This document shows positions 8,934-51,248 of a stretch of DNA of 64,000 nt, piece by piece; position 1 is the first letter of the stretch, and each line of letters starts with the position of its first letter. Below the pieces are notes generated by a model. That model was not told the origin of the DNA, searched no databases, and saw only the letters and a list, made by a program, of their open reading frames with translations. Source of the DNA: Marsupella aquatica (taxonomy: Eukaryota; Plantae; Marchantiophyta); contig OZ316896.1 of assembly GCA_973895155.1 (NCBI GenBank), forward strand, positions 7,325,278-7,389,277, in the 5' to 3' direction. The position numbers and the translations under genes were made by a program.

Positions 8934-10431
8934 TGTCGTGGGGATTCCTTTTAGAAGGCTAGAATCCATATTGTGTTATTTGAGTTTATGTGAAGAGAGT
9001 TTTACTTAAAAGCTTCATAATAATACTATTAGAGCATATATGTTACATTCTATATGTAGTGTGTACATTCTACAATGGTACACAGTAGTTCCACCATTTA
9101 CGCATAGTAGTTTTACAAACTAGATGCATAGTAATTCCACCAACTACGCATAGTAGTTGCACCAATTACACATAATAGTTTCACCAACTACGCATAGTAG
9201 TTGCACCAATTACGCATAGTAGTTTCACCAACTACGCATAGTAGTTTCACCAATTACGCATAGTAGTTGTACCAATTACGCATAGTAGTTCCACCAATTA
9301 CGCGTAATAATTCCACCAACTACGCACAGTAGTTCCACCAACTATGAATAGTACTAGCACACTTATAGGTGCTTGATGCTTGCCACTTGGCTTCCATCCA
9401 AAGGTCAAGGCATCGATCCATGCCCTCTTGGAAAACACAAAGGGGCACTATAAATAAAGTGAAGAGGAGCACACTCTCCTCATTCGCATTGTTTGATCTA
9501 TCGTGTTGGACTTGCAACACTGTAAGGAACTCTTCCCCTCTTGTGCACATGTCTTGTTTATTATTTACCTCCATGCTTGGGTACTAACTTGATTGTTAGC
9601 CTTAGAACTATTTTATGTTTTATGTTTATTAGTCTTGAGATCAATTTAGTGTGCTTGTAATGAATAATATGATAAATGGAGTACCTAGAGTTTATCCCCC
9701 ACCTGCTGTGCCATTTGTTAATCTTTTCTTAATTAGAATTCATTGTCTTAGCAAGCATACCATGAGAATGCATCTTCTTTATCATTTTGGGTTTGAGTTA
9801 ATGGAAACAGTTATGAATAGCGATGCACCATTTGTATACCCGATTGTTGTTTATGGAAATGAATGGAATGTAACTATTTTTATTTTATATTAGATGGATT
9901 TTAATAGACAATCCGTAAATGTACCAGAGTTAGATTTGAATAGGCTTCCTAATAATGTGTCTGATTTTCCTTCATCTATTGACATTAGAGTGGTATGCCG
10001 TAAGAAGGTTGATTGTAGAGATGTTTTAGTTAGAAAGTATGGAGATGAAAGATACAATGTTATATTTAGGATGCCAGAGCCTGTGATTATATCATCTATG
10101 GTAAATCTTAAGATCATAGTCTTTGTTTTCTATAATTGACTTGTCTAATTGTAGGATTCGTTGGAAATTGCAATCTATGACTTGACTTGGGAAGTAAGTT
10201 ATGTGGAAAGAGGATAGGCCGATTCGAGGCTTAGTGTGAGGAAGCCGCTCATCGTAGAGTGGAACAAAGGCTGTGAGAGATATTTTAGAGGATAACGGTG
10301 AGAGAAATTGATCGACAAAGGGGATCGCAAGGGTAATATGAGGTGAGAAAAGACGTATTTTGGAAAGGTTTCTTCCAAGATAGGAAAAACAAGAGCTCGG
10401 TGCTTCCCAAGAACTAAAGATTCCCCCGACA
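8934..10431. mobile_element. Solo LTR B (1498 bp) inserted at the start of chromovirus RT
   Basis: Termini TGTCGTGGGGATTC / GATTCCCCCGACA; 4-bp TSD GCGT/ACGT; removal restores [10 protein letters not shown]. Confidence 0.8.
9091..9352. repeat. Minisatellite, 22-bp unit x ~12, inside solo LTR B
   Basis: Head-to-tail copies of (C/T/G)CACCAA(C/T)TACGCATAGTAGTT without spacers. Confidence 0.9.
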
Positions 10432-11064
10432 ACGTTCTTTAACATCATTCATTCGTTCAGGTTCAGACTATAAGGAGCTTTAGCCTGAGGAGCCGAACTT
10501 GGCTCCAACTCAACTATCTTGGTGATCCATTTCTCTCCGCGGGGGTAAACCTTTAGGTAGCTTTTGCGAGAGGACATCATTGAATTCCTCTAAAATTTCA
10601 GGAATTCAATCGCAGTCGGGCCCAACCTTAGCTGACTTAACCTTTGGCAGCAAAGCAACCTCCTTAACTGGGTGGAGATGAAAGAAGAAACATTCATGTC
10701 CACCCTTGAAGTCTTTCCACCATTGCTTCACCGATACATACCAAACAACCACAACACTTTACTTACTTTGAGAAATCTTTCTTTATTTTTGGTAATTTTG
10801 TGTACAACGATGGGCTAACTCCCCTTATTGGGAAAATTGAGCACCTCATCCCCCGGTTCAAGGTAACATTTTGCTTTCTGAGATAACCTACCAACAAAAT
10901 GAAGTCTACGACTAGACTATCTAGAATATAGAACATCTCCTGACTAACAAAATTTTGTTGTTCGCCTATGACCTCTACCCAAAATCTATGTACCACTCTC
11001 GACACTATCCCTTTCGTGTCGTTGACAAACTTGCACACTAACGGTTGTAGCAACTCTTGCACGT
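10432..11064 (-). pseudogene. Chromovirus protease C-terminus and protease-RT linker
   Basis: VQELLQPLVCKFVND... then EILEEFNDVLSQKLPKGLPPRREMDH and KAPYSLN; continues the protease broken at 44080. Confidence 0.8.
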
Positions 11065-12238
11065 TGTTGTGCCGAAAGATTTTGGCTTAGGAATGGCTTT
11101 TATAGGGGATGATGGGCGAGGCCTCCCGGTTGGGTTGCATGCATGCTGACTCGGAGGGGCTGCTTGGTTGGATGGATTGAGGTTTGGTGATTGGGTGACT
11201 CATCATCACCAGGTTTGGTGTTTGGGTGAGTCCAACAGTTTGTGTGAGTGTTGGATCCAGGTGGGGATTTCTCAAGTTTGGAGCCTCGTCGATCCAGACG
11301 GGGATTTCTCAAGTTTGGAGCCTTGTCGATCCAGGCGGGGATTTCTTGAGTTTGGAGCCTCGTTAGTCCAGGCCCGAGTTTCGTGTGAGCTGTTTTAGAC
11401 TAGTGAAGTAGCTAGTCAAGTTTTGGTTTTGTGAGCTAAGGAGGAAAGTTTTTCCATCAGATTTTGAGTAGATAGTCACGCAAGGAGTTTGGCTTGACAA
11501 GTTAGAGGTAGCGGCCCGCCGTAGGGCCAACTACCACACTCTTGCGGGCAAGCTTACTCGAGGGCACCCATTGTAACCTTTGTGAGAAAAGTAAAAAAAA
11601 TAAAGGAGTGAGAGTTCACTCTGAAAAGTGCTTGTCGCCTGTCCCAATCGCAGCCAAAAATGCGTCGTTTGCCCGAGGAGCCCCTAACTATAAGTCCTCG
11701 CGACATTGGCAACCATACTAGGGATTCCTTGGGGCGATTGGATGAGATGGGTGACTATGACAAAGTTGATCGGATCTCGAGCATCGTCATGTCGATGATG
11801 AGAACCATAAGGAAGGAAGAGCTTGAGGCGGAAAGGGTGAACAAGGAAGCAAATAGAACTACTTGGTGTCTCCAAGAGGTTCTGAAGGAGAATGGGCAGT
11901 TCGATGGGAGAAATGTGACAAGCTACCTTAAGTCTTACTTGACAGATGTAGTTGTCTACAAGTTGGACAAAGGGACGGCGATGAAAGAGTTCATGGTGCT
12001 GGTTGAGAAGGAGTTGAGTTTGATGGTGCGGACCATCGTTGAGTCAGCTGAGGGTTGGGATGACTTCGACCAGAAGATGAAAGAGGAGTTCCAAGCGGAG
12101 GATGTTGATCGGGTCACGCAGGCTACCTTCTTGGATTGGGTGAATGACAGGAACAAGAAGCTGAAGGGGCCGCAAAAGCTCCTAAGGGAGTTCAAGAGAA
12201 GGGTGTCTCAATTACCGAAGAGGGATGTGGGGATCATC

Positions 12239-12524
12239 CTCGGGGGGTTGACTATCAAAAATCTTAGGAACCACGTGCGATCCAAAATAGGTATTTTTGG
12301 TAGAAATTAAATAAAATTTTAAAAAGCGTAGGAGGCAAAAGAAGGTATTATAAACTCATGTTTATAGAATATTCTTTAATATCTACCTTTTGTAAATAAA
12401 ATAGACTATTAATATTGAAAATAGAGAATATTCTTGGAATAATTTCTTTCTAAAATAGGTTTATATATATTAGGCTAGGATTGCACGTGGTACTCCAAAA
12501 TATACACTTAGTTAACCCCCTGAG
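12239..12524. mobile_element. 286-bp MITE with 8-bp TSD, copy 1
   Basis: TIRs CTCGGGGGGTTGACT / AGTTAACCCCCTGAG; perfect TSD GGATCATC. Confidence 0.92.
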
Positions 12525-27526: not shown

Positions 27527-28990
27527 CGGTGGTGGAGGGCCACTCCTTTTAAGGAGGGCGGACGTGGAGGAAGGAGGCGTGAGTGGGAAAGGCGGGCTCA
27601 GATCTCCAAGTTTAGAATTAGGATCAGGAGGCGGCCCTGACACTTAGCTTAGTGGGATTGCGGATCCACTGGTAAGAGCAACACTTGTGCTCCTGCCTCA
27701 TTGTACATAGGTAGATTACGATCAGGTTAGATTAGGCTTACGCTGCAAGGAATTGGGCGGATCCATTGCCAGGATAAGTACTTGGGCAGCGGGGGGTTCA
27801 GCACCTTCTAGCTTCCTTAGCAAGTTTTTCGTGCACCAGCAGGGTTGGGATCAAGTAATTAAAGAAGCTCTCGGTTAGTTATGTTGTGACCCTTGTGTAT
27901 ATTCATGTTTCCTCAGGGTCATTGTAGCGTGCGAGGAAACAGTAAAAAAATCCTCGCACTGGATCATTTTCTCCTTGGAATACCCAAAATTTGGCACGAA
28001 AACAACCTCGCTAGCATAAAGTGACTCTCGCTAGCCTAAAAGGAACCTTCTATTCCACCTATTTATTTAACTCCCGTTGGGTTTAAAAAGACATCCCAAC
28101 GATGCATTGGTACATATTACGTATTCCCCAGACACAAACGATCGTCGACGGCACCATAATTCAATATATAATTCCAACGTACATCAGGCCAGCAAAGTCA
28201 CTAGCCATAACTCTGCCCATCATTCTCGCACAAAATACTCCATGCGGTCATGACCCACACGACAAGCACTCATTAGAAAGCACGGGTTTAAACGGTTGCA
28301 GCAACAGCACTACACCGGATCATATCACGATAGAATCCAACGTCCCCTTCCTCATGAGTGAAGCGTGAAACGCAAAACCGCCGTTGAGGATCTGAGGCTC
28401 CCAAAATGCACTATATGTCATTCGGACCTCTCGACTCATCTCCATTCCTAATAGTGTCCTCACTCTTTCGCGATCGTCTTCGCATCGCAGAGTAACTTCA
28501 ATCGAGCTTGTGTTGTCATATCCACGGGCGAGGAGGGGATCTGGTGTTCTCGGGTGTGCCTCATTCTCGCAAAGTTTTTGTCGCACAAGGAGATGTAAGT
28601 TCAATACCGGGAGACCTCTTCACATCAAGTAGCATTATTGTTAATGAGAAAGTCTGGTTTTCCCAGTTCTATTTTCCTTCTCGTAGTTTTGCGCGTTTTG
28701 ACTCGATGAGCTTGGATGTTTTGAAGGTGACTGTTTCTATTTGGTAAACACAAGTGAGAAAGTAATCTGATACACTGCAGCGTTTGATACAGACAGAAAT
28801 GGCAAAGAACGATGACTCTTCCGCTCCAAAACCCAAATGGGTTCTGGAGGTCCGCCGCTACAACGCCAAAACTGACGGCCTAGTGGACTCGCCACCAAGC
28901 TCTCCTCCGGCAAGGAAGAGTGTACCCCCTCCGCTCAAGACTGGATCATCATCCAGTCGGGTCCCGCCTGTTGTCTGTGCTTCAACTCAG

Positions 28991-31900
28991 TGTGACGCCG
29001 CCGGTACGGCGGTTAATGAGTGATTCAGTCTAACTGCGCTCGGCACGCGCGTTAGGTGGGTCTTAGGCCGCTATTATTAGCATAACGACAGTATTTAGGT
29101 AATCATTAGGGGTAGGACATCATTAGGCAATAAGGGGGACTTCAGGTTCGGGCTGGCGGCGGGTCGCTATTCGCACACCCGGGTTACGAGCGTGGAAGGG
29201 CCCCTCCCTTGGGTCCGTATAACGAACTTAAGGAAGCGGCCACTGACGCACGCTGACTCAGACCGGCGGAGTGGCCGGTACACCACAAGCATGAGCGGTT
29301 TAGCCTATGGGCGTCGAGGAGACGTCGGGGATCGACAAGCCCTCAAAGTATAAAAAGGGAGCCAACCCTTTGTAGTGCACCAGTCCATCAGTCCGCGCGC
29401 CAGCTTTGACCCCAGCTCTCTTGTTCTCTCTAGGTCGCCACTACTATCTCCTCTGAGTGTCGCACACGATCCTCTCCAGTTCGGCCATTCGATTCTGGAC
29501 GCAGTTCCTATCTACCGGAAGGCACTTGGCCGATTCATTGAAACACGCCAACCCGCGCCGATACGAAATCGAACGCGAATACGAGAGAGCCATCCGCCTA
29601 GCAGGATGACACCACTACGTCCTTAACTTTGACTACCCGTCTCAGAGCGAGCTTTACCGACCAGCAGAGGTATCTGGGTACTTCTTCAACGGAGACAAAT
29701 ATATCGGGTTCTGGGAAGCATTGCTTCGGCTTCCGGACGAGGTCTTCAATATCCCGGGTACAATCGACCTGCAGCGACATCACTTCGACCACATCCCTGC
29801 CCGGGTTCGGCTGTCATTAACGGCGAGTCCAGTACCAACCGTTCGAGGGCGTCTACACTCGCTTCGGAGAACTTCTACCAGCACCTGCAGAGCTTCATGG
29901 GAACTCGGCCATCAACCAACATGACCAACTCAGCCGGGCCCGTACCCGTACCCTTGCCCATGCAGCCCCAGCCTCAACCTCAGGCTCAGCTTCAGCTTCA
30001 GCCTCAGCTGCAGCCTAGCCAAACCCCACCACCTATCACCCAGCCAGCACAGGTACGCTCCGTCATCAACACTGTGGATCTTAGCAATGACGACGAGGCT
30101 ACCCCACCCTTGACCAGGCGGCCCAGAGGAACAGGCGCTCGGGGGGCCGACACTATATCATCCCCACCCCCTACTCTGACCCCAGGAGCGGCCCCAACAG
30201 ACAACATGGTGATCGTGGCCGCCCCGGGCCCGTTACCAACCGCAGTGGCACTCCCCAGGCCCGATCGGGAGGATGGGGAAGTATCACCTTCCCCGAGTCA
30301 GTCACGGGGAAAGAAGAGGAAGGAATCCGCCACTGCATCCGGGTTACCGTTGGCCACGGTAGCCGTAGCCAAGGTGACGATGCACCGCATGGGGGAAAAC
30401 GTTCACAGCAACATCCTCCATCCCAAGCATGCAGTGTACCTGAAGACTCAGGGATTTGAGCACCTTACCTCCCTCCCCTGGAACACTTGCAGGTACTACG
30501 GGGAGGACATGACAGAATTCGTCAAGAATTATGATGACGTACGTCAACAGACTCGGCTGCGGGGAAGGAATATGTCCCTCACAGAAGAACGGCTCAAGAT
30601 GATCTTCGGGTTACCCGAAGGTGACCATCGAGTCGAATCACGGGCTCCCGGGGGCAAGGGGGCCAAGTACCAATCTTCAAATTTTCCCTCAGAGGGAGCA
30701 GTAGACAACGGGTTCGTGATGAGGACCTGTCTCATGCCCGAGATAGCGGAGCGGCTGGAGTTCCAAAGGTACGCTCTCCACATGATGGAACCCCGGGGGG
30801 AGATCTCCGCCGCCCAGGTTATCCAGGTCGAGAACTATCGACCTAGGAAATGGGCGTCGTACTTCGCTAAGAAATTCCATGAAAAGATGGAGAGGTGAAG
30901 GAAGACGCTGTACATTGGCGGGAAGGCGTATTTCACTAGCCACATCGAAATCATTCTGGAGTGGTACGCCCGGTTTGATCGACGAACCCTTCCCCGCATC
31001 AACGTTACAAAGCTGGTCCCAGCTAGGTGGGTTTTTCCGGCATTGGAGAGACGGCCCCAACCCGAGGCCCGAAGTCCAGTGGACACGCCAGCTTCACCCA
31101 CCCCACCTCCACAAATAGCTGTAATCGTAACCGAGGAGGCGCCGGAGGGGTTGGTCGTCGCAACCGATGCGACCCAACTAGCCGGGCTAAGTACAGAAGT
31201 TGGTACGGCAGAGGTCTTACCCGAACCCGGGTCTCCCAAGGACCCACCGGTGGCAATTTCGGAGAACCGGACATCGCTACAGGAGGACACTCCAGCCCCT
31301 TCCAACGTTATGTCCCCAGGGCTGGACGTCACTGCCCCGGCCCCTGCGCGTGTTGACGTCTGCCCGTGCCCAAATCCGGACAGGCACAACTTGGACCACC
31401 CGGAACTCTTCGTACAGGGTACGTTTCTGAACGGGCTTCTGGGAGATTTCTCTCATCAAATTGCCCGGGATACCGGGGAGTTCATGGCCCGGAAGGTAGC
31501 CTGTTTCTTCAATCAGGAGTTGGTTGCCACCGTAAAGGCAGGTCGGGCCCAGTCAGAGGCCCTTCAGAGGATAGAGCGGTACCGGGTGGAGTCCGTGTAC
31601 CTAAAGAATGAAGTGGCGGCTCAAGAGGCTGAGCTTCTGCAACTACGACCCAAGGTTGCAGCCGCCGATGAGTTGTTAGCAAAGGCGTACGCTCTTACCG
31701 CCCTAGCCGAGAAGCAGGACCAGCTGGCGGCTAAACTGACGAGCGACGCCCAGCAGCTGGAGGAGGCATGTCAGGAGGCAGCAGAGGAGACGGACGCGGC
31801 GAGGCGAGAGAACGAATCTCTGCTGGACCAGGTCCAGCTCCTCAAAGCGGACAATGACAGGCTTCGAAGGCAGCGGGATGGCCGTTCCCATTCGGGCGGC

Positions 31901-32820
31901 TCTGGCAAGCGTGCCAGGCATTAGCGGCGGAGTAGGAATAGATTAGGATTATGATTGGCTTAGTCAGGCTCTTGGGACAGGCACCTGCCTTAGGTACAGC
32001 AGCGCTGCCCTGCTGTCCAGCCTGCGTAGATTAGGATCTTCTAATAAGACACAGCCGTTTTCCGGCCTGACTGTCAGCTTAGTTAGGACCTTAGTCAGCG
32101 AATCTTCAGTGAGAGGACACCCCGTCCCTCGGCTCTTAGTATTTAGTGCACCCCTCGGTAGAGGCAGGGGGGTTTTTAGTTTCAGAGTCGGACATCCGCG
32201 GGATATGCGGGGAGTCCCGACCTCTGGGAATGACAGAGTACCAAGGGGAGGGGGTAGGACTAAGCTCGTCGGGCGAGTGCGGAGCCGGGCTCCGTTGTAG
32301 TGTGCACCCTCGGCCTTGAACCTGTTCATTCCAGGGCTGTCGGGTCAACTAAGTGTACGCATATGTTCCCTTTGTAGTAAAATCCTTTCCCATCATTTTC
32401 TTTCGTGTAGATCGAGATTGTATGCATGTGTGCGCATATGTGTGTGGGTTTCTCGTATATGGGTGGCAGCGCCAGGCCGAACGCACTACCCGAGACGTGC
32501 ATAGGGTGCAGCCTACGGGTAAGTGGTTGCGAGCACGGGTTGAGGACCTATATCATCGAATCCGGATCGAAGGCGGACAGCATGAAGGCTTAGAAGCCCT
32601 TAAGCCGGGGTCGATCCTGCTATCAACTAAGGTACGTTCCGGCGGCGGAACACAAACCATACCTAGGAGGTGTCCGTATTTAGCAGTATGCACACTTAGC
32701 GCTAGTTTACGAGAATAAGGTGCATTACGTGCTTCCCTTCCTGCCCGAACCCTCAGATTTACGAGGGATGTGCCCATCTAAGCTGAAGTCTGAGTTAAGG
32801 CCGAAGCCTACGACGTGACA
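28991..32820 (+). mobile_element. Solo LTR E (3830 bp) carrying a long ORF
   Basis: TGTGACG...CGTGACA termini; perfect TSD CTCAG; TATA-like TATAAAAAGG near 29349; no terminal direct repeats, PBS or pol. Confidence 0.88.
29897..31924 (+). pseudogene. Accessory ORF of LTR E, 676 codons with one internal stop
   Basis: 29897-30898 and 31043-31924 share a frame and 30899-31042 is open; P/Q-rich N-terminus, LPW...EFVKNYD...IFGLPEG domain, C-terminal coiled coil. Confidence 0.75.
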
Positions 32821-33567
32821 CTCAGCGACCTGCACCGCCAAAGGAAACAACTTCAAGCATTGTTTCCAGAGCACCAATGTCTTCTCGCACAAACCGGAAG
32901 AGAGAGGAAGAGGAGGAGGAGGAGGAGGAGGAGTCTTACTGGAGGGACATCAACATACACAACTACTGGACATCCGATATCCTAGCTTCCTCCGATTATG
33001 ATACGGATTCGGACACAGATTCAGACGCCTACAAGGCAGCATCTCCATGAATAGTACCCTAGACGACAATCACTCTACGTTGTGAACCCCTGTAGTTTTA
33101 CAGTTAATCTCTGACAAGTCCGTGACCTTACAATGAAATGATCGGTAGGACACAAACATTTTGTCAGTTACAGATGTTTTGATAAAGATTGGACACATAT
33201 CTGAATAAAGCTTCAAAAGTTTTTCCAATTTCATGAGTGCATACCTTGCTAGCAAGATCGCTAGTAAATATTGCCTACCGGTACTTGAGTGATTTCCGTT
33301 GTGGATGGCATGAAATCACTCCGTGTATGTTAAACTTTCACAAAAGTTTGGTCGAATTAAATCTTTATGTGTTGTTAATTGTTAGCGACATCACTAGTTA
33401 AAATAGGCAACATTTAGGACCCACACTTATTATACAGAAGATCCTCACTAACATACCATCAACATTCTTATTACTCGGAAAGTGTCCATTGTTCAGGTTT
33501 TGAAACCTGGAATGCGACAAAAACAGGTACTCTTAAACGTCCACCTTAACGGATAAAAGAGATGGAC

Positions 33568-36500
33568 TCAACTATTGTGTAATGGAATCAAACTCCTTAG
33601 TTCACCAATAGTCAGAATTGGCTGTTTCACAAGATTGTCTCTCTCTAGATTAAGCGAAAACTTATTTAAGTACACCCAGAGGAGATGTTTACAAGACATG
33701 TAGGGTCTTCCTCGCGTGTGCCTCTTGTAGAAGTCATCACAAGAGCAACAAGGGAAGCAACACACTTGAACCCAATAGTTGTGTGCAATTCTAGAGTCAC
33801 TCTCGTGAGTAGCGATGAAATATTGCCATCCCCATCCGTTTCCTATGCAAATCTTGTCACTTCCAATGACTCTCATTTGTTCGACAGTTGCAGATCAAAT
33901 GCGTTTAAGAAGCTTCGGGGTGTTCTGGAAACGTTGCCGAATGCCTTTCCCATTCCGAGTCTTCAATCGACGATTTGGATAAGCAATGTCAACCCTTTTG
34001 GGGAAGGCGTTCACATCAATTTAGAGGTCAAGACGACTTGCAGGAGAGAATGACCTGATTGGTGTCGCATCAGAGTATGATAACCCTATGATTTGAAAGC
34101 CATTTCGAAGGAAAAAATCAATCTCTTCAGGGGTCAGACTAGTTCCTCGTTGGACTTGCAGTGCCTCAGGTGGTTGCGGGAGCTGGGCAAGAGTCCTTCT
34201 TCCACCTGTTTTATGGCACTTATTATTTGGACAAAAGTACAGAAGCTGACGATGTGGGGAGGACAACCTCAATCCATGAATGGCCACACCAACAACTCCA
34301 GTCCGGAATGCCTTATATCCAGTTTCCTTGATCAGATTATGGCATTCTTCTCTACCAAAGACACTCCGATCCACTAGTCCGTTGCACACAGGTCCACTCC
34401 CTTTCCCACTTTGTCTCAAATGCCAGGTCCCATACGAAACATCAACCTCTTCAATAAAAGGGATCCTTCGGGGGGCATCCCGAATCTGATCCTGACTATT
34501 TTGAGGAGATGGTATTTCTCCAACATCATTTGTAATCGGTGTTCCTTCTACATCTATTCCAAGGCTTCGTTCTTCACCATCATCTGAGATATTGATAACT
34601 TCACGAGGGAGAGCATCTGTCTGGTGGGTGGGACAGTTTTCATTATCAAGAATACACGACGGTCCCCCAAGGTCAGAACCACTTCTGAAACTACTTAATT
34701 CAGTGTACAGATTCCTTCTTTTCAAGCTTGACGGAGATGTTATTGTACGCAATATTTTATCATGTCGATGAGAATCATTCTCATGAATAGACGCGGAAGC
34801 ATTACCCTTACATTGTCCGAATATCCCCATGTAAAGGCTCTGTTCTATAGAACTCATACTTTCCAGAGGATTCAAATAGTAGATTGGATTCCTTCTCGTA
34901 GGCATCCAACGATCCCATAGTATTTTTATTGCGATAGGCCAGCTCAAATATTGTAGGACCATTACCACGATGACATCCTTCCATATATGCGGTGAACGCA
35001 ACAATCTGTCCAACTGCTCAATTCTGATAAACTTCACATGCTTCCATCAAACCAATTCTCTTCTTCGGTTGGCACAATCGCATGGAAGCATGAGAAGATT
35101 CAGATCCTGCGCAGTTTGGCATCAAGGCAAACTCTTTTGCAGTTTGTATCTGCCACAGAATCAATGTTAGTCAATGTATTCAGGCTAGCGACCTCGCTAG
35201 TAGAAAGCACACTAGTTACAGACTAGCTAGGGTTAAAACAACGATATTTAGGCTAGCAATCTCGCTGGCTTAAATTTATCATAAATGATGGATAAAACTT
35301 ACCACTCGAATAAAATTGCCCCATTGTCTCCATCGCACAACCCACCATGAAATCCAACCTTGAAGGGATTTGAGCTTTGAAGGATGACAATTCCCTTCTT
35401 TCCACCATTTTTGAATGTTGTCTGCAATTCTATACGCTTCGACGTAAGTTGGGGCAATCCTTAACTTCTCCCACATCTTATAATGCTCTGCATGACACCC
35501 CTCCTTGATGCCATCCAATGTGTGTCTCCTCAGGGACTGAGAAAAATGGAAAGCATCGCTGTGCTCTTTCATAGGATTTCGAACACCACCAAAAAAAACT
35601 CGTCGTACAGCAATCCAACCCGCCTCTGCATTGTCAGCTATGAATCCTCCAATAACAGGATTATGCACTCCATTCTCCGATGCCACATCTACCATCAATC
35701 GCCATGCAGTTTCAAGGGACTCGGTGTCTTCGGCTCTCAACTCACAAGTAAAAATTGTACATAGAGCCTGGTAATTGTGGTTATAAACATGTGCACTGAA
35801 TGTCAACCATCCAGTAGTGATGCGATGCATCACGTCAAAACTGACCCAAGCACCTTCCAAAACTCTTCCAGACTCCATGCTCCTCAAAATGTCCACACCA
35901 GATCCAGGTCCGTTTGTACTCATTTTGAATACATGCGCTCGATCATTCTTATTCCCTTGACTAGGAAAAAGGTACCTTTGCACAAAAGGGAAATTATTCC
36001 TTGACTGCATTTCACGAAGGGCATCAAGTTCTCCTTTTTTGGGATTATCCATCTTGATACTCCGGAGTATAGCTTGGAACTTGGGAGTAGTGGAAACCAC
36101 ACCTATGGAACTCCAGATTTCCATCTATTCTTCTCTCGACAACTGAGATGATGATTCCGGATGCAAAAGTGAGACAAGGCTGCCAATGGACTGGTTCCTC
36201 ACAAGTGCTGGAGTTGATACTGGATTCAATCTATGGACCCCTAAAATGACATCTTACGCAGTCTTTCTTGCTGAACGAGATTTCCCTTTCCAAACTGGAT
36301 GGTCATGGAATCCCATATGCACAACCAACCTGGACATATGCATTGAAATGTGACTCTACAAACCTGGCTTAGGGTACACGTACAACAGTTTTGCCGGGAA
36401 ATTTCAAATACAAAGCGGCCGCTCTTCACAAAATCCACAGACAATGTCACCCTCACTCACGTGCTCCTCTCGGGGGGTTAACTAAGTGTATATTTTGGGG

Positions 36501-37768
36501 TACCACATGCGATCCTAGCCTAATATAAATAGACCTATTTTATAAAGAAAATATTCCAAGAATATTCTCTATTTTCAATATGAATAGCCTATTTTATTTT
36601 ACAAAAGGTATATATTAAAGAATATTCTATAAACATGAGTTTATAATACATTCTTTTGCCTCCTACGCTTTTTAATTTTTTTTTAATTTCTACCAAAAAT
36701 ACCTGTTTTAGATCGCACGTGGTTCCTAAGATTTTTTATAGTCAACCCCCCAAGGTGCTCCCCAAGACGAAAGATGTCAGTCAGTAACCCTTTCCCTCTA
36801 AACGAGCAAGCATTTTTCTCATTCGTATGCTTGAACTTCCGACATCCCAAATTTTGGCATTCAAGTATTCCAACACATCGGACTTTTGAGGCAGACCAAT
36901 GGAACCTTGGCTTCAGGTTTGCAGACATAGTGACAAGTCGAGTCCACGGATAGCCGTCGTTCTCTCGATCCATATCTTGAAGACCTCCTCCGCGTCCGGA
37001 CCCTTCGATGGGAGGAAGTTCAAAAACAACGTTACTATTGTATGTCGATAGCAGACTAGGAACCTGGCATTCCTTCCACTAATTCCCTCTTCAAAATTGT
37101 GCAAGTTCACTCACGCCACTTATATTGAGAAAAGCGTCATAAGCACTCATCCGATACACTATTGGCATGGTAAGCACATCCATTTTCTTGACCAATCCTC
37201 CGGGTTCCGAACCACCTCCTGACTTGGCTGACCCACAAGATGTGTCCTGCCTTAGACTATCAAGAGATATTTCAATGATATCCGGGGCCATTTCTTTTGT
37301 AGGCATTTCCAGATCAATCATACGAGTAGTTTTTTCTTCAGGAGGAGAATCCACATGGTCCAGAATGATATTAGGAATGCCATCTTTACTTGACACAACC
37401 TCTACATGAGATCCAACCTTCAATGTCCAAACCCTATTGGAAGTACTACTTTTTTCTCTCAACTCGTGACTACGTGTTCTATTTTGACAATACAACTCAA
37501 ACAACTTGTAGATGATATCACCATCTAGAAGTCCAAACCGAGTTGTAAGGAATGACTCTGTCACTGTCACCTCCGATGAACCTGGTGTGCTAGGAAGCAC
37601 AACTACATCTCCCATCATTCTACGCTCCAAAATGACTTTGCAAGCCATCTCAATCGTCCTAGACAAAATTTTAGATGACAACAAAAGAAGATGACTATGC
37701 TTAGGATCGTCTACATGACCCTTATGATGAAGCTTTAATCTCATTTCATCCCAACGGAAACAACCCAT
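33568..37768 (-). pseudogene. Mutator-like transposase: GCM-like zinc domain, DDE core, C-terminal SWIM finger
   Basis: DGYPW...CVGILECQNLGC...CGFC...HMGFHDHP; WVSFDVM, FIADNAEAGWIAVRRVF...AFHFSQ and, after an intron (~35150-35302), GSESSH; CSCDDF...CKHLLWV. Several stops and a MITE. Confidence 0.82.
36469..36754. mobile_element. 286-bp MITE with 8-bp TSD, copy 2 (inverted relative to copy 1)
   Basis: Near reverse complement of 12239-12524; TSD GTGCTCCT/GTGCTCCC. Confidence 0.92.
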
Positions 37769-38332
37769 TGACCAAATTGTCAGAGAGTTTCCGTTGATGT
37801 GACCGTTGTTTTGTTTTTTACTACTTGTATCGTCGGAGTCCTCATGCTAGTGAGATCTAGCATATAATGACACGCTTTATGGATATATTTATAAAGATTT
37901 TCCTAGATTTTATGTATATATAGACTGCAGATTTCAGGCCAGCGATCTCGCTAGCCAAAAAGTAATTTCAATGGTCTTTAATTTTACCATTGGGATTCCA
38001 TTCATAATAGTCAACGGGTACCAACTACGACCAACACCTATCCTGTTTTGTATGGATTACATACTCCCGGTCGTGAGAGTTGTTCTTCGCATTTTCCCAA
38101 AAGTACAACTAGTGATCTATGCCAGGAGATTTCTGTTATTCCTTCCTCGGATTCGACATCGTCTTCTGTATTCATGACTGTACCTCTTTAGGACTTCATC
38201 TGGTCTTTGTAACAGTCTGTACGGCTGTCCGGTACTGATTGTTGTTGATGTTTGTCACTCGTGCTGGGATTGCATCCTCTGGACAGGAACACTCTTCAGC
38301 AAAGTACACTCTTTGGCGAAGGGTTTTATTTC

Positions 38333-41300
38333 ATGGAGTCGTCGTTGTCTCTAGAGAATATTTCTTTCAGAGGATTGTTCCAGTCCAGGGAGTCGACTAG
38401 AAGAGAAACAAGGTCTATAGCGAACAAGAAGGTGCTAGCATCGGGATTGAAGACTCCAAGACGACCCAAGATGGTGATAGCAGTAGATGTTGTGGCACCG
38501 GTGTTTGATCCGAGCGCTTCGGAACCTTATACTGTTGTCATAAACCATCATCTTTACTCTTTCGGAGTGAATGAGTTTGGTTTTTATCTGGCTCCCCCTT
38601 GAATTCCTCTCTGCAGGATGAGGAACATGCAAATTGTTCGATCTCTGTAGAAGGATTCAACTACGATAGACACACTGAAGTCCGAGTTCAGGACCCAGGG
38701 TTACATTGAAGATGCGCCTCGGTTTTATGTACAGATGACCAACGAGGATGGAGAGCTCCAATTGTGTATTGATGCGATCTGTGAAACTTTGGATGACATT
38801 TGGGTGCTTCAGAAAGAGGAGTTCGAACGCGAATGTGATTCCCATGTATCTTTACACGTCCTCAAAGACAAGATGTTCTTTGTTTTTGATGGAAACCATC
38901 GACTGTATTCTTGGACTCAACTTGTGGAAGAGCATCCGGAAGATATTAAGTACCATCTACGAGTTGTTTGCAAGATTTTTAAGGGTGATAAAAACTCATT
39001 TGTTCAGATCGAGTCGGCAATGCACGCATTGAACAGGTGCAATTTCTAAGTATAACATTTTCTTGAAATTTGTGTTTTAGTTAATCACTTTCTGCTAGCA
39101 ATCTCGCTAACATGAAAATTCTCTGGCAAGTTGACACAATGTCACGTTGAAAACTCCTGGGTTTTGGAGGCCGAACGGGTCCAAAAGATTCTGAACAACG
39201 ACTTGTCAGTTTACAAGGATATCATCGATGCTGAGAATTACAAACTTTTCCAGCAAAAGATGGCAAACATGCGGAAGGCAGCTTGGTATTCCAAGAACAT
39301 GACGCTGGATGCTTGCACTTATATTCTATCCGCTGCTAACATTGCATCTTAGACGGAAGACCTCAAGAAAAAGTTTGCTTTGAAGGAAGCTCAAGGGGAG
39401 CCCCTGTCGAAGGCCTCACAGGAGTTAGCAATGCAGGAGATGATGAAGGAGCAATTGGCTGATTGGAATGTGAAAGTTCCTAAGATCGGTCCATTACTGA
39501 ATCCAAAATTTGGTGACTTTTTCAAGAAATGTGTAGAAATGCATAACTACTGCAAGAATGAGAGAAAGGAGGCCCACAGAACTGATGACAAAGGACGAGG
39601 AAATGTTTCTTGTGGTCTTGATTGAGCTCGGTTGTTCACAGGGGTGACGTCCTTATCCCCAGAACTCCGATGTACACTCCTGGAAGCGTAGTGTTGTCCA
39701 AAGCTTTGAAATAAGTTCTTTCATCCTAGTCAATTTTCAGATAGTGAAACGAAGCTTTGGCTTCACCGCTGGGCAATGTGGGAGCAAGTCGAGTCAATTG
39801 CGTCTTCCCTCATGTCTAAAATTGTGTTTGAGGTTATGCCTACTGTCCCAAAGTCCCGGATCCTTAGTTCTTCAAAAAAGACCAAAGCTTCGCTCATCCT
39901 TGACATTGAGGAGGATTTTGAGGATTTCCAGACTCGTGTTAAGACTCATTTCTTCCTTCAAGCAGATTTGGCCTCCCAAGACAGGAGAGAAGATCGAGAT
40001 TGCATTGTTCCGAAGGAGAGCAAAGAGATACACGTATCAATTTTTTGTAGACAAAGAAGTAGCAGACAAATTCTACTGGTGGTCCTACCCAGCTTGCTTC
40101 TCCCCATGGATTGCAGGAGTTAAAGAGGATCCTATAGGTGACAAATTTGGGGATTATTCTATGTTTCCTTGCGAGGGATGTGAGGCTCCAAGGAGAATGA
40201 GCGAGTGGGAGATTCTTCACTGTCCATGGTATTTGGACTCGGACAAGTGGTCTGTCACCTTCAACACTGCAGAGAAAGCCGCTCTTCATATGATCAATCA
40301 TGGATTCCTTCCGGAGTCTTACATCTCGGAGTCCAAATTGGCACCCACTGACGCTGAAGTTGGTGGTTGCGAGGCTATGGAAAAAGGCTTGTCTTGGTGT
40401 AGCTGCAATAGTGGATAGGAGTCGGTCTCGAAAGCCAAGGAAAGGTGCAGTGAAAGACACATCCAAAGATGGGTCCCAAATATCGGGAAAGCCAAGTAAG
40501 TGTGTCAATGTTTCGCTTCATTTTCTTTTCACGATCTTATGTGTTTCTAAAGAGACAGATTCTAATAGCTATTTTTTGACAAAGAGGAGGAAGGGTACTG
40601 CTTCTGAGAGTTTGAAGAGCGGGGCAGATGATGGAGTGGAACCTCAGTCCCCAGATGTCGAAGTAACAACAAAGAGCACAGTGGATTTGGGAAGTATAAA
40701 GCGTCTGAAATGAAAGAGGAATGTCCAGATTCTGTCGGATTCGGATGATGATGAAGTTTCAGTTGCTCAAGGCGTCGCTCGGATGTGTGGGTTGAAGATG
40801 GATGGCTAGAGACATTTCCTTGCTCGCAGTAATTTGATCGACACTGCGAATTCTATCAGCGTAAAGAAAGTAAGGCCATCTTGGATGGGAGATGGAGACG
40901 ATGGATTTCTGGGATGTCCAACAGTGTCGAATGCCCAAACCCTATCATCATTAATGGCAAGCCATGTATGATGGGATTGGAGCACATTTGGGATTCATTT
41001 CTCTTCCAACAGGGCATAGAACACGCGTTATAGACAAAGAGGTCCTGCCCTGGAATGTGTGGAGCGAGAAGCTGCCTTCTTACTTTTTTGGAGTCACGAG
41101 ACCCATGCTTTCGGACGAAGGATATGTGGCTGTGCTTCATAGCTTGGATTTCAATCACATGCGACAAATATTTATTGCGGTTGAGCAAAAAAACAAATTC
41201 AAACACGTACAACAATATACAGTTTTATTATCCACTCCTTTATGGAGAGCCGATATGGATATTGAGGTACATATTACTGAGATATTTTGATGCGGTTTTA

Positions 41301-41941
41301 TGCTAGCAATGTCACTAACAAACATCTTATCATTTTCAACTTGAAAAAGGTTCATTTCCATCTTTGAATTAATGCTAGCGATCTTGCTAACAAAGTTTCC
41401 AGGCTTTTCTAATAGAATATCATTCTTCCTTCAGGTGTGCACTCTCATTCTGGACGTCTTCTGTCGAGTGGAATTTAATGCAAAAATTCCCAAAGACCCT
41501 GCCTATGTTCCTTTGACGTCTTCGGAAGATGCCAGGCATAAATCAATGCTGAGCGTCTGTTACCCAAAGATTGACCCCTATCCAACAGCGACCGTTGCTG
41601 GATCAAAAAGGCTATCAATTGGCTTCATGCAAGCCGTGATGGAGTTCCTCACAAAGCCGAGAGATATCGTCCTTGACTGGACTATGTGCGATGGAAGCTC
41701 ATTTTCCGTAGGGGAATACTCTGGTCGGTTCGTTGTTGGTGTTGAGGACAGGGACATTCTCCATTCGTGTGCTCAGAAAGGTTTAACAAGCGTTCTGGAG
41801 AGGCACTCTAGCAAGTCCAAGATGATTAAAGATCAGGAAAAGAAGGGTAATCAGGATGCTGGGTCTGATGATGAGTTCACGATACCAGGAGATGAACAGG
41901 CTCGACCTTCAAGCGAGAAAGACAAATTTGACCTAGAGTAA
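38333..41941 (+). pseudogene. ParB/Srx-like domain fused to an N6A/N4C DNA methyltransferase-like domain; intron-containing
   Basis: IPLCRM...LKSEFRTQGY...FFVFDGNHRLYSW (DGNHR at 38888-38902); AHLGFISLPTG...MLSDEGYVAVLH; FMQAVMEFLTKPRDIVLDWTMCDGSS...GRFVVGVED. Introns ~39037-39129, ~40496-40583 and 41267-41434; may extend to ~42380. Confidence 0.72.
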
Positions 41942-44079
41942 AGTACTTGGCCTCTTCTGATGTCGGACTCCCAATTTGGTTTCTTTTGTTTTATTCATTT
42001 TGTTGCTCTTCCTCAACTGATGCCAGTGGTTGCTTCAATGATAGGAGGGTGGATTGGTTTTTTGAGGAGAGATTTTGTCTTCGAAAGGAAGTGGAGGAAT
42101 CCATCCTGGTTACTCCAGAGAAGCCTTTCACTCTTCCGTGCTATGCTGAGAAGTCGGCGAAGGAGGTTGATGACGCTCCTGTGGTCTTGACCTAGGAGGC
42201 GAAAGGGCTTCGCTCAATTAGAGGAGCTCGTAGATATCTGGATTGTTCAAGGGTTATTGACAATGAAGCAGGGACAGTTAGCCAGTATTTAGATGAGTCT
42301 GCCGAGTCAACTGAGAGAAGACCAGTAGCGATCCTAGTAGAAGTTCAATATCTGATGATTCAGTAGATGAGGTTTATGACTAATGCAATAGCTTCAGTGT
42401 TAAACTGGCTATACTGCTTACCATCGACTCTTATAGTTTTTTTCTGTGTGCCGGTTTTTGGATGTCCATACTTTTAATGTATAATGAATGACCATGTTCT
42501 CATGAAAGTGCCTGCTATTCGGTTATTGTTTTCCAATATCGTTGTGCGCAGAGTCAAGTATGGAATGCATATGACAATCATGCATGAATTTCCGTAGTTA
42601 TAACACTTTCATTACTTTGAGAGAGGGAAAATAGTGAAATTTGGTTGTTTTTTCCATTAATGTGGTCGTGAGTTCGATCATAAAATGTGCCTCGCTAACA
42701 ATGCTACCTCGCTAGCAAAAATTCCTGTTTGCTTGCACCGTAAAATTCCTCGTTCCCTCATACCTAAGAGATGAATAGAGTTGGCCTCACGGCTTAGTTC
42801 GCAGATCTTGTGTATGAGAAATACTGTTTGTATGGCAAGTGCATGGTATAACTCAATCAAAAGGAGTCATTTTGCTATTTGTGTGTCGCATTAACTTGTT
42901 TGAAGATTGCCCACATCAACCAAGAAGGGAGTAAGCAAGGTAGTAAGAATTGGATGTGTCGAGCTGAGAGAGGTCTTAGCGGCTTACCCAAGCCAGTTGG
43001 GGATCATTCCGGTGGCGGAATCCAAACATACCTAAAGGAAGACCAGGAGAGGAGGACAAGGGAAGGCATAGAAGAGGCCGGCTACGTATCTCATGACCCG
43101 ATGAAGGATCTGTCTAGTATATGTGTGTAAAATGTTAGTAGAAGGAAGTTAGCAGCGTCCCATGCCGCTAAGCCGCGAAACTGGCCTCGCCAAGAGCAAA
43201 ACCTACGGGAATTGGCTTGTGCACGGGGTTTTTTGGGTTCAGGGAGTCATGGGATGCACCACAGAGGATATCGTGCCAAAAGATTTCGGCTTAGGAATGG
43301 CTTTTATAGGGGATGATGGGCGAGGCCTCCCGGTTGGATTGCGTGCATGCTGACTCGGAGGGGCTGCTTGGTTGGATGGATTGAGGTTTGGTGATTGGGT
43401 GACTCATCGTCACCAGGTTTGGTGTTTGGGTGAGTCACCAGGCTTGGAGTTTGGATAAGCCTCGCTGATGGCAGCTAGCTCAGGCTGGATGGTTGGGTTT
43501 CCAATGCTACTTAAGACTTGAGCCTCGGCTCATTGAGGTTGGCGGTTGTCTATTGAGATCTATTGAGTTTTGTTTTGTGAGTTTCGCTCTGTTCTGCGGA
43601 ACTTGACTATTGTGCGGCGGGTTTGGAGTTCTGTGCGAGTGTTGGATCCAGGTGTGGAGTTTTGGATCCAGGCAGGGATTTCTCAAGTTTGGAGCCTTGT
43701 CGATCCAGACGGGGATTTCTTGAGTTTGAAGCCTCGTTGGTCCAGGCCCAAGTTTTGTGTGAGCTATTTTAGACTAGTGGAGTAGCTAGTCAAGTTTTGG
43801 TTTTGTGAGCTAAGGAGGAGAGTTTTTCCGTCAGATTTTGAGTAGATAGTCACTCGAGGAGTTTGGCTTGACAAGTTAGAGGTAGCGGCCCGCCGTAGGG
43901 CCAGCTACCAGACTCTTGTGGGCAAGCTTACTCGAGGGCACCCATTGTAACCTTTGTGAGAAAAGTAAAAAAAATAAAGGAGTGAGAGTTCGCTCCAAAA
44001 AGTGCTTGTCGCCTGTCCCAATCGCAGCCAGAAATGCGGAGTTTGCCCGAGGAGCCCCTAACTTTAAGTCCTCGCGACA

Positions 44080-47062: not shown

Positions 47063-48347
47063 ATGTCTGCATTTAAGGCATTTGCATCCATTGTTCCAGT
47101 CCGTTCCTGTCTGCGTCTGGTCGTCCCAGTCCGCACGCCATTGTTCATGGGAGAATGGTGGGCTGCAATAGGGCTAGTGATTTTGCTGGCCTCATGTATG
47201 TATTCCTTTCAACTTTTTCCTGATTGTTCCTTGGATTCGGATGTTGAAAAGAGGGTACAGATTTTGAATTATTCCTATCCTCGGTTCATGTATGATGCTC
47301 ACTTGTGGCCTAGCCTTCTAGTGAATCCAATACCTCATATCCACAAAGCTTCTGTTCAGTTTAGTTTTTTTGAATAAATTGAACACTGATACTTATGTTT
47401 TACAAACACTTGTTGTAGCCTGGCAAGGGTCATTTCATGCTAGCGAGGCACTAATCATGAGATATTTTGGGTTATGCAAGAAGAAAATGTGCCCGTGAGA
47501 ATAATGTTTTTGATGTTGCTATATGGTGAATGCAACTTTCAGTATTTTGTCTTATTCAAACTTCTTTTGTTATGCATTTTTATTTGAATGTGTCTTACCA
47601 AGGTGCATCCCTTGTATAGTTTAGATTTCAAATTTATTCTGGCACCCCTCTAATTTAAAAAAAATCTTTGCTATATTTAAGATCATCCACCCTTTAACAA
47701 AGCTCGTGTGATTTCTAGCCCTTATTCTCATGAGTGCAGAAAAAATGATCTAAATAAAGTGCACACCTTGTGTCTTTAAGTACTACTCATGGTTTTGTGT
47801 CCTAAATTTATGGTTTTAATTATTTGGAGTGTCATTAGCTAAAGTAAGCACATAAGTATCTCTACTCTTGTACATTATGTGCACATCCCAATATCATAAA
47901 CTTAAACTTTCACTTTCCTATTCATTATTATTTTTCTTTACATGTGTAATTTTACTCTTGTACCTTATGTGCAAAAGTTCAAATATCATAGACTATATGT
48001 CTTCCTAGTTAATGTACTGTTTATATTTTAATTAGCACACTTTAATTAGAACACTTGCATATCGCTACAAAACAAAAATAAAATGAACATGCCATATCTC
48101 GCACGCTACAATGACCCTTACATAGCTTTGTGAACTTGCCTAGTTTAAAAGAGATCACGTCCCGGTATGGCGCTTTTTATATCATAGCTTTGGAAACTTG
48201 CCTAGCTTGAAACAGTGCTGCAACATTAGAACGAGCTCCCGCCATTTCCTGGATTTCCCGATGCCCAACCTACTCTTGTGGAGCTTTCAAACTCTGCAAA
48301 GCCATAGCGTCTCGGTAGCGAATGCCGGAAGAAGAAATCAATCGGCT

Positions 48348-51248
48348 ATGGCGGATGAAGGACTCGACGGAGCAAGAGTGGAAGGGCTGGGCGACGAGGC
48401 AGAGCAAGGACGAGAGCGAGAGGACGAAGATGGCGTTCGACGGAGCAACGGGGCAGCTTCTCTGGCCCGTGTCCCTGAAGCAGAGAGTAGTACGAGTTGG
48501 CCGACGACTTCTTTTGGCGACGGCGATGCTGGAGAAGCAGATGATCTTCATAGCACGGACGTCGAGCTTCTTAGAAGGGTATGGAGTAATGAAAAAGCGG
48601 CACCCGAAATTCTGCGGTACGAGGCTCAGTTGGTGGAGCGAGTTCAAGAGCAGATTCTGCTAATGGTGTGTGTTTGTGTATGTATGCGTGCTGCGTGTTT
48701 CCAGTTGGTTCTGCTGCTCTTCTCTTCTTGCTTGTTGCACTGTGCCGTATACATGCATGCCTAGGTGTCCAGACGAAAGCACTTCGCTGGCATGGATGTA
48801 AATGGAACCTCACGAAGATAACATACACCAAACGAACTCTGTCATTCGGCCAATTGTTCAGGCAGGATCGAAATGCATATCGTGAGCGGTTGAACGGTTT
48901 TATGGTTTCTGAAAACTTATTTCTGTCGTGTGGCGGTGATGATGTAAACTTTAGGAGGAAAACATAGCAGCGTTTTCCACCGAGATATCTGATGAACTTA
49001 TGCTGTCACTGTACCGGATGGACGTGAATCGCGCTCTTTATCTACTGCGATCCTATCTACGGACGCGACTCAGTAAAGTACCTTCATCAGATCTTCTTTG
49101 TGACTAACACAATTGCATGTCATGCCTTCTTTGAATATGTCATCAATACGGTAGCTTAATGTCATAAGCAGTTCGTAGTACGAACCTAACCTGAATTCTC
49201 TGTGGGACGGATGGCAGATAGAACGGTTTCCGATTCACATTGTTAGTACTCCGGATACGAGCGAGAAACTTTCTGAAAGCGAATTAGAGTATGCCTTCAG
49301 GTGAGTGGTGTCTTCAATCCTGCTCCTTTGGAGTCCTTTATAAATCTTCGTTCTCCATCTATCTCAGCAAAGCAAAATGATTCCTTTTGCTATGGGTCTT
49401 TCGTGCTTAGTGCAAGGCAAAGAAGTCTTTCATGTATGCACGCTTCGTGGAAAATGCTGGTTTTTCGTATGGACAGTGATACTTATTTCATTTATTTTAT
49501 TTATCAGGGTCTTCATTTTTCTTTAATCATGAATATTCTTTGATAATTTGAGCTCCTGTATTCTTTTTAAAAAACTGGAAAGATGTTGATCATAGGTATG
49601 GAGAAGCTCTCGCGAAGCACTTTGAGCAAACTGTTTTAAACCGACTACCAGAAGAGTACAACTCGATGTCGAAACAGTACACTTCATCCGAGGAAGGCGA
49701 CATGAGTATCCATTTCACACAATGCAATTAATGAAAGGATGCATCGGAGAGACAAGAGTGCGGCACTGAATGAGTCAATGTTTGTTTTCCTTGTTGCGAA
49801 ACAGCATAGTGTCTTTCATACCTTGTGATTTATTGGAAGACTTCACTGATGACGGAATTGACTTGAATTCCAAGGATTCTGGCGTCCAGAAAAGGATTCT
49901 GAGTTTAGGGTCCCGTTTAGGTCACGGCATTGCAATCACAGGTAAACAACCTTACTTCTAATTCCACAGTACTTGTCGTAACCGACGACCATTGAAGTTG
50001 TCATTCGCATTATGCACGGAAAATTCTAATTAGTTAACGTTGATACGAGCGAGAGAGGACTCTTGCTCTCATCCCCTGGCTACACTTGCATTGATAATCC
50101 TGCTATAGGAAAACTAAACTAATGCACATGTCAAGATATTCTTTGATTGAGTATAAAGAATATTTATGAAAGTCTCAAACTTATTTTCCTGTGTCTTTTA
50201 AGGAAAGCAACCCCGCTGCCGCTGAACGGTTTGAAACCTGGTCTTCATGCCTCACCTTGAGGATAGGATGATGGAACAAAAGATGTTAATAACTGCAAGT
50301 AATCTTTTTGTTTGGGTTCTTCTGTAGAAATACATCCATTTTCGATTCGATGACTTCTTATGACCTACACAAGGAAGGCAACTTGACTTGTGAATATTAC
50401 TCAACAGATCTCTAGCTCTTGGCTGTTAGATTGTTGTGGGTTGCAAATTTCCCTGACAAGATACCAGTTCCAAAACCTCAGTTGGACACGTTTGTTTTCT
50501 GCAAGAGCAAAGGAGCTATTGGCGCTTTCCAGCTGGACGACAAGTAAGTATCTTGAAGTGGATTTGCAGATAGACATTTTAGCGCGGTTCAACATCCTGG
50601 TCCTTGGCTGTTTGAGGTTTCCTAGATCCCGAGGTGGACTCAAGGCTCATGAGGCAAAAATTACTTAATCACCTAGGACACCTGTTGAGCTTGCTATCCT
50701 GTTTCTGTACATTTCAAATACTCATTGGGGTGCCTTTCTTTTCTTTCGTTACTTGCGAGGATTTCGACTCTCGCTGGGTTTGTCTCTGAATTAGATGCCT
50801 TTCGTTTTCCCTGTCTGTAGGACTGTAGAATTACATAGCAGTAGTTTATTGTAATTTAAATGTTCTGGAGTCAGTTTTGGACTCTTTGTGCAAGTTGTGC
50901 AAGCGCTTGAGTTGCGTTACTAGTCTGTGGTGAAGCTGAAGCTGATCAAATGTCACTCAGTTTTATGTTTCTTATGTGCTTGTATAAGAGAGGTCTAAAG
51001 CGCTCAGTATTGAAGGAAAGTTCATCTTCGTGTAGCGCTCCTATGTTTGCTGTCTGGGTAGCCCCGATTTAGACTTTACAATAGTGAGAAATCTGACAAT
51101 TAGGGGATATTCATGGAACTGATTATGCTTGATATTCTTTTGTAACAGGGGAGATGAAACGGTGGATCTTATGAAAGATGATTTGCACATCCTTAGATAC
51201 AAGCCAGTTAGGAGGCTTTTAGAGGCAAACAAGATAGAACTTATTTAA
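48348..51248 (+). CDS. SLD5: DNA replication GINS complex subunit SLD5 (GINS4), 269 aa; exons 48348-48665, 48955-49077, 49218-49300, 49596-49705, 50468-50543, 51149-51248
   Basis: All GT-AG introns, 810 nt in phase; TDVELLRRVWSNEKAAPEIL, YRMDVNRALYLLRSYLRTRLSKIE, PKPQLDTFVFCK, DLHILRYKPVRRLLEANKIELI. Confidence 0.95.

Follow-up and report, generated by a model that had tools for sequence, protein, structure and literature searches.

A decayed Mutator-like element

The window, a stretch of 64,000 nucleotides of the liverwort Marsupella aquatica, contains a Mutator-like transposon with a 9-bp target site duplication (TSD), an IS256/MURA-related DDE transposase and short, degenerate terminal inverted repeats (TIRs). 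The element spans 14,836 bp, or 10,714 bp after removal of two nested inserts (Table 1). An empty site, in which position 27910 was joined to 42756, was detected in contigs of three of four runs (X1, X4, X5). Further along the window there is a second left end, which is diverged and belongs to a related element; a second occurrence of TTACATAGC at 50831 was considered as TSD of the second element end and rejected, as it lies on the wrong side.

Table 1. Coordinates of the element, its genes and its palindromic sites in the window
Feature	Position	Strand	Remarks
Mutator-like DNA transposon, decayed copy	27916..42751		termini, TSD, empty-site contigs; sits in high-copy repeat
Left 9-bp TSD	27907..27915	+	GTTTCCTCA
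Right 9-bp TSD	42752..42760	+	GTTCCCTCA; 8/9 match to left
Left degenerate TIR	27916..27942	+	19/27 match
Right degenerate TIR	42725..42751	-	19/27 match
Possible short third ORF (ORF3)	28799..33053	+	S/P-rich, acidic tail; split by nested insert
Nested LTR-type insert	28991..32820		TG...CA ends, 5-bp TSD CTCAG, high depth, palindrome-free
Transposase pseudogene	33571..37648	-	GCM-like zinc domain, DDE core, SWIM-like end; stops and frameshifts; tblastn of relatives
Transposase intron, phase-0 GT-AG	35150..35302	-	position common to relatives
287-bp insert in transposase	36469..36755		93% like 12228-12524 (inverted), palindrome-free
Cargo pseudogene, start uncertain	37980..41941	+	ParB/DUF3723-like N-part, middle part, N6/N4-methyltransferase-like C-part
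Predicted cargo introns	39037-39128, ~40496-40580, 41267-41434	+	
Two half-sites CTCGCTAGC	28007..28035	+	20 bp apart, ~90-120 bp inside left end
Palindrome copy, 3 mismatches	28188..28205		pattern scan
Palindrome copy	33248..33265		spacer, ORF3 to transposase 3' end
Palindrome copy	33381..33398		spacer, ORF3 to transposase 3' end
Palindrome copy	35184..35201		transposase intron
Palindrome copy	35252..35269		transposase intron
16-nt palindrome copy, two bases missing	37846..37861		between divergent genes
Palindrome copy	37938..37955		between divergent genes
Palindrome copy	39094..39111		cargo intron 1
Palindrome copy	41302..41319		cargo intron 3
Palindrome copy	41374..41391		cargo intron 3
Two half-sites CTCGCTA(A/G)C	42691..42716	+	17 bp apart, ~36-60 bp inside right end
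Second, diverged left end of related element	47131..48117	-	half-site 47439 and full copy 47173

Seven long proteins were 46-64% identical to the transposase, and 934 profile matches were obtained for it. Among ten relatives that were looked up, three were named, and these came from the liverworts Calypogeia fissa and Riccia sorocarpa; the relative P0055 was labelled SWIM-type by its source. Pfam gave no match for 71 members of the transposase family. The best PDB matches of a model of the relative P0001 (pLDDT 86) were to the ISCth4 transposase of the IS256/Mutator group (E 8e-5). The match to the DNA-bound GCM domain (1odh) was weaker (Foldseek E 0.018, probability 0.94, TM 0.41), and the full model aligned to GCM over 138 residues with Z 6.2 and rmsd 4.7. 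Among the proteins of the element, the transposase is the only one with a modelled DNA-binding domain. Transposase searches yielded one locus, designated L001, from 104 candidate stretches in metagenome contigs, no loci in genome contigs and none in viral contigs.

The divergent gene, referred to here as the cargo gene, appears to form a single gene, with introns predicted from GT-AG signals and from relatives. Four relatives were found (41-56% identity), one of which stops at the matching intron position. The N-terminal part has a DGNHR motif and weakly resembles ParB-like proteins, with all matches below curated cut-offs (phrog_1033, E 0.015; TIGR03187 DGQHR, E 0.0012; an ESM Atlas cluster, ParB_N 11%, at 0.91); its nearest named ESM Atlas clusters are DUF3723 (scores 0.95-0.96). 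Weak but concordant matches of the C-terminal part to N6/N4-methyltransferases (MTases), likewise all below curated cut-offs and compatible with a SAM-binding motif I region, included PF01555 clusters of the ESM Atlas (0.89-0.91), DpnA (E 0.077), PRK13699 (E 0.0046), CcrM (E 0.016) and phage MTases (E 0.1-0.8). No catalytic (D/S/N)PP(Y/F) motif IV was recognised in the decayed copy, which reads SLPT at the likely place. The middle domain had no family match in profile searches, and Pfam returned nothing meaningful for cargo pieces and relatives, including no PF12520 match. PDB sequence searches gave no significant match, the MTase-like exon had no relatives among longer proteins, and no cargo was found in viral contigs. 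A structure prediction for the ParB-like part had a pLDDT of 36.8, too low for use.

A palindrome dispersed over the non-coding DNA of the element

Ten near-full copies of a palindrome and four half-sites were identified in the element, every one in non-coding DNA. The consensus, GCTAGCGA-NN-TCGCTAGC, has 8-bp arms and a 2-nt spacer, and the core common to the element and its relative L001 is GCTAGCG-N4-CGCTAGC. A preliminary description of this DNA had listed nine of the copies and the half-sites at 28007, 28027, 42691 and 42708. All of these are present, the copy at 37846 being a 16-nt form that is two bases short. The 18-mer written there is indeed a palindrome, but it is identical to none of the copies, the best being 37938 with one mismatch. 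In addition, the copy at 28188 had been overlooked. The description had seen no full copy elsewhere in the window; a full copy at 47173 and a half-site at 47439 lie within the second, inverted left end. There, the half-site and a 28188-type copy occupy matching relative places amid indels and otherwise hardly alignable DNA.

None of the copies is perfect, and the nine 18-bp copies have 1-3 mismatches each. All 19 departures from the consensus in these nine copies are transitions, including 16 C>T or G>A changes, and nine of them lie at CpG; we take this to mean that sites that were once good have decayed in a dead copy. When up to two mismatches were allowed, a degenerate pattern gave 20 strand-matches (10 sites) versus 0.43 expected, which none of 100 shuffles reached, a contrast that is inflated because the pattern was derived from the same copies. 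GCTAGC itself occurs 11 times in the 10,714 native bases of the element and five times in the 48,146 bases outside, being about tenfold denser inside, and is absent from the 3,830-base nested insert. Allowing three mismatches added one unrelated site in the ~48 kb outside the element (45128), and allowing four added two more (11399 and 27998).

The placement given in the preliminary description (two copies in the transposase intron, three in cargo introns and two between the divergent genes) was confirmed; within the window, all 14 sites lie outside predicted exons. The non-coding share of the native element is 28%, which gives p ~3e-6 for the 10 near-full copies with partly inferred exon boundaries. 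Seven of eight non-coding intervals have one to three sites each, the short second cargo intron being without any, and both nested inserts are free of the palindrome. In native coordinates (of 10,714), the site clusters lie at 92-273, 1498-1631, 3434-3502, 5809-5901, 7057, 9265-9337 and 10654-10671, a spacing of 1.2-2.3 kb once the nested inserts are removed. The copies are dispersed, and since their flanks bear no relation to one another, they did not arise by tandem or segmental duplication. The right half-site pair is oriented in the same way as the left pair, not as its mirror image. The terminal half-sites are explained by the transposase no less well than by the cargo.

It had also been suggested that CTAAC in the cargo-intron copies may double as a branch point, which our analysis does not support. 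If a branch point is expected ~18-40 nt upstream of the 3' splice site, this idea fits one of three cargo-intron copies and one of five intronic copies overall. Only in the 39094 copy is CTAAC at branch distance (~18 nt from the acceptor predicted there); in cargo intron 3, copies 41374 and 41302 are 44 and 116 nt from the acceptor, and a separate CTAAT lies at 22 nt. In the transposase intron, a CTAAC is present apart from the palindrome, and no CT(A/G)A(C/T) was found in the L001 intron. The CTAAC form represents one G-to-A transition and occurs outside introns too (33381, 42691).

Conservation of the palindrome in related elements

The sole relative with readable DNA is L001, whose transposase is 64% identical and whose contig ends short of the cargo. 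Cargo and palindrome have been observed together in this window only. The orthologous transposase intron of L001 is longer than that in the window and otherwise different in sequence, and it contains three GCTAGCG-N4-CGCTAGC copies (0, 0 and 1 mismatch). The eighth arm pair is C-G in all three L001 copies versus A-T in all 10 aligned window copies, both sides having changed. In addition, intron read-through in P0070, which at 74% identity is the protein nearest to L001, gives LLAPALAI, the translation of the L001 form of the palindrome, twice (0.02 expected). P0070 is the one of 25 read-through tails with the motif, most tails being too short to reach it. Positional conservation between copies, on which the preliminary description had made its proposal depend, was observed in the orthologous intron of L001 and in the read-through of P0070. 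As judged by sequence comparison, the palindrome is maintained rather than a product of chance, because it is present in the L001 intron and in the intron read-through of a third element (P0070).

Among closer copies, most of cargo intron 3 has been replaced in a sister copy (one contig each in X1 and X2), with homology resuming just before the 41374 copy. In family contigs, variant density was similar in the motifs (5/36) and in the rest of the transposase intron (18/117; p=1.0), and transversions were borderline (0/36 versus 11/117; two-sided p=0.07). The five motif variants are all transitions, of which two restore the consensus and three are CpG decay. A motif scan of viral contigs found seven loci, each with a single central match; none had a series of dispersed sites, and they were taken as chance.

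The copies could instead be neutral relics, inherited after internal duplication of subterminal repeats or as footprints of repair, or branch points under selection. The variant density among close copies and the one CTAAC at branch distance would fit, but such explanations are very unlikely given that the copies have unrelated flanks, that three near-perfect copies occur in an L001 intron of other length and sequence, and that branch points misfit four of five intronic copies and L001.

What may read the palindrome

The preliminary description had proposed a parS-like or transposase-binding site. What stands of this proposal is a putative element-specific protein-binding site, to which the non-coding placement, the intron conservation in L001 and P0070 and the terminal half-sites point. 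Protein binding is suggested because the sequence is kept between distant elements, is restricted to non-coding DNA, is evenly spread and occurs as lone half-sites at the ends. We consider that the palindrome is a likely docking site for a protein encoded by the element, most likely the cargo, with an effect on marking or activity of the element, and assign this reading a probability of about 40%. That the reader, be it cargo or transposase, is encoded by the element itself is probable.

Here and below, published systems are taken as described in parts of the cited sources. The cargo is preferred as reader because the sites span the whole element and because proteins with a ParB fold are loaded at palindromes, from which they slide (PMC12704722). 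The cargo would load at the palindromes and then act along the element; this action may mark the element or sustain its activity, in the way that VANC serves VANDAL, and could help it evade host silencing. Protein binding, the cargo as binder and an effect on chromatin or DNA modification are what we infer in this proposal. A more specific version, in which the cargo would clamp palindromes every 1-2 kb in a ParB/parS-like load-and-slide manner and carry an N4-C/N6-A methyltransferase along the element, leaving a private protective mark, is doubtful. The parS site is a 16 bp palindrome and thus similar in size to that of the element. Unlike in ParB-parS, the cargo is eukaryotic, intron-containing and located on a DNA transposon, and its ParB assignment comes from weak matches.

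A possible, though less probable, reader is the transposase. In this case, the unit TCGCTAGC would be the site of its GCM-like domain, terminal half-sites would aid transpososome assembly, and internal inverted pairs would serve as autoregulatory or enhancer sites. Half-site pairs are located 36-120 bp inside both ends, the TIRs are poor (19/27) and share GCGAG with the half-site, and the P0001 model aligns to the DNA-bound GCM domain. Furthermore, Muta1 has subterminal tandem repeats (PMC5225508), and self-regulation via internal sites has been suggested for WRKY-GCM1 transposases (PMC1702500). However, inverted pairs make up 10 of the 14 sites, and the majority of sites are located kilobases away from either end, within introns of the transposase and of the cargo gene. 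The pairs at the two ends do not mirror each other in orientation, and known MULE sites are terminal.

That the palindrome acts as a structure, i.e., an RNA hairpin in introns and UTRs or a DNA hairpin or cruciform, and not as a sequence read by a protein, is improbable. In L001, symmetry runs 6, 21 and 4 bp past the core, and the intron has a folding z of -10 to -11. By contrast, folding of the introns in the window does not surpass that of shuffled sequences (z -1.5, 0.0, -0.5), and the symmetry of flanks in the window does not reach significance (p 0.06-0.35). A flanking pair covaries (T-A in 7 and G-C in 3 of 13 copies), with a score that 1 of 500 shuffles reached, for copies that are related and a structure derived from these same copies. 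When 15 distinct tails were subjected to a back-translation palindrome test, the P0001 tail was consistent with a long palindrome that is centred on GCTAG and differently spaced (1/1500 shuffles), P0167 reached 43/1500, P0168 of the P0167 cluster 0.03 and the others at least 0.14, in a test that used 100 shuffles for 13 tails, misses the known case P0070 and therefore has low power. On the other hand, the sequence itself, beyond pairing, is kept between distant elements, the lone terminal half-sites are unable to pair, the unpaired A at 35258 had no variant in four runs, and an Rfam search gave no match.

Still less probable is a host factor that reads the palindrome and is exploited by the element, e.g., for germ-line expression. 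Two copies do lie between the divergent genes, and conservation across related hosts could arise in the absence of an element-encoded reader; however, the scarcity of sites in the ~48 kb outside the element (a single unrelated one at up to three mismatches) is against it, and the eighth pair varies by element clade, as expected if the reader evolves with the element.

Relation to known systems

In VANDAL21, the target motifs of VANC21 occupy introns as well as non-coding DNA between genes and at the ends (PMC5735166). As in the VANDAL/VANC system of Arabidopsis, a Mutator-like element here has extra genes and a family-specific non-coding motif, in this case seen in one window (PMC5735166), and the motif varies between related families (PMC5735166; PMC10398659). 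In contrast, VANC motifs are 8-9-nt, non-palindromic and arranged in one-orientation tandem arrays, whereas those described here are 18-bp palindromes dispersed singly or in pairs (PMC5735166; PMC10398659). The cargo, ParB-like and MTase-like by weak matches, is likened to VANDAL/VANC by layout, not by protein comparison. We do not class the element as VANDAL/VANC because there is no tandem array and no shown VANC gene.

Features in common with Muta1/ISCth4 include the 9-bp TSD, the DDE transposase, a candidate WRKY-GCM1-type zinc domain, SWIM and a motif near both ends (PMC5225508). Unlike in Mutator/IS256 elements, the TIRs are short and degenerate, each end has two half-sites that are not mirrored, and most sites are internal.

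Fusions of a ParB fold with an N6/N4-MTase are known in phages (PMC12704722), and the cargo has the same order, with a DGNHR motif followed by a C-terminal MTase-like region (PMC12704722; PMC4738411). Chlorophytes and chytrids have eukaryotic N6A-MTases joined to a ParB-type HTH, and other eukaryotic N6A-MTases derive from phage ParB loci (PMC4738411); the parts of that source used here contain no Mutator-borne case of such MTases. DUF3723 (PF12520) of fungal Starships is likewise a conserved passenger with no assigned function on a large eukaryotic transposon, but Starships move by a tyrosine recombinase, and no associated palindrome was seen in the parts of the source used (PMC9156397). Prokaryote-type beta-class MTases are also represented by MpDN4MT1 (10.1101/2021.02.12.428880), which provides a liverwort context, and bdelloid N4CMT (PMC8885841). 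By their published descriptions, on which this comparison is based, these are host genes with SPPY, whereas no SPPY was recognised in the cargo. In the mostly open-access literature covered, supplements apart, we found no account of the element or the palindrome and no paper linking DUF3723 with ParB.

Within the literature searched, VANC/VANDAL is the one worked-out plant case of transposon self-recognition via a non-coding motif. If our reading is correct, the seemingly unrelated system of liverwort Mutators would mean that the strategy evolved more than once, here with a palindrome and a ParB/methyltransferase protein of phage-like type. With the site and both candidate readers delimited, the proposal can be put to a direct test. 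It may also help to explain what DUF3723 does in Starships and, if true, would point to a transposon as a possible source of DNA modification other than 5mC in early land plants.

Domains of the cargo and transposase

Among proteins in the ESM Atlas, the nearest neighbours of the ParB-like part of the cargo pseudogene (window 38396-39037; residues 95-281 of P0012, the protein handle paired with it) were fungal DUF3723 clusters. DUF3723 is described as conserved cargo of Starship transposons (PMC9156397). DUF3723 and ParB were not found together in the literature searched; a ParB fold may be proposed for the DUF3723 protein. In the model of P0001, a relative of the transposase, residues 1-83 were predicted to adopt a ubiquitin-type/DWNN-like fold (Z 7.2, rmsd 2.8, 74 aligned).

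A possible short third gene keeps its frame across the nested LTR-type insert (window 28799-28990 and 32826-33053), and its product would be Ser/Pro-rich, with poly-Glu and an acidic tail.

Second left end and other repeats

The second left end is interrupted by approximately 590 bp of inserted AT-rich DNA, its opposite end is absent from the window, and it lies directly upstream of a host gene. The peptide of the host gene at 48350-49700 suggests that it may encode the GINS subunit SLD5. Elsewhere, two copies (93%) of a MITE-like, AT-rich, high-copy insert of approximately 290 bp were observed (12228-12524 and 36469-36755).

Additional features of the window
Feature	Position	Remarks
Tandem array	9082-9389	period 22 nt
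Second left end	47131-48117	same element group, diverged; inverted orientation
Host gene	48350-49700	multi-exon

Palindromes in introns of relatives

In L001, DNA of a relative with three palindrome copies in the orthologous transposase intron, the middle copy forms the centre of an inverted repeat (1172-1231) whose arms, approximately 30 bp each, match perfectly. Read-through of the same intron forms the C-terminal tails of two protein relatives; at the peptide level, that of P0001 fits a GCTAG-centred palindrome with a short spacer, and that of P0167 a palindrome of unrelated sequence. Both tails can accommodate palindromes that differ from the one described here, a hint that the motif varies between subfamilies.
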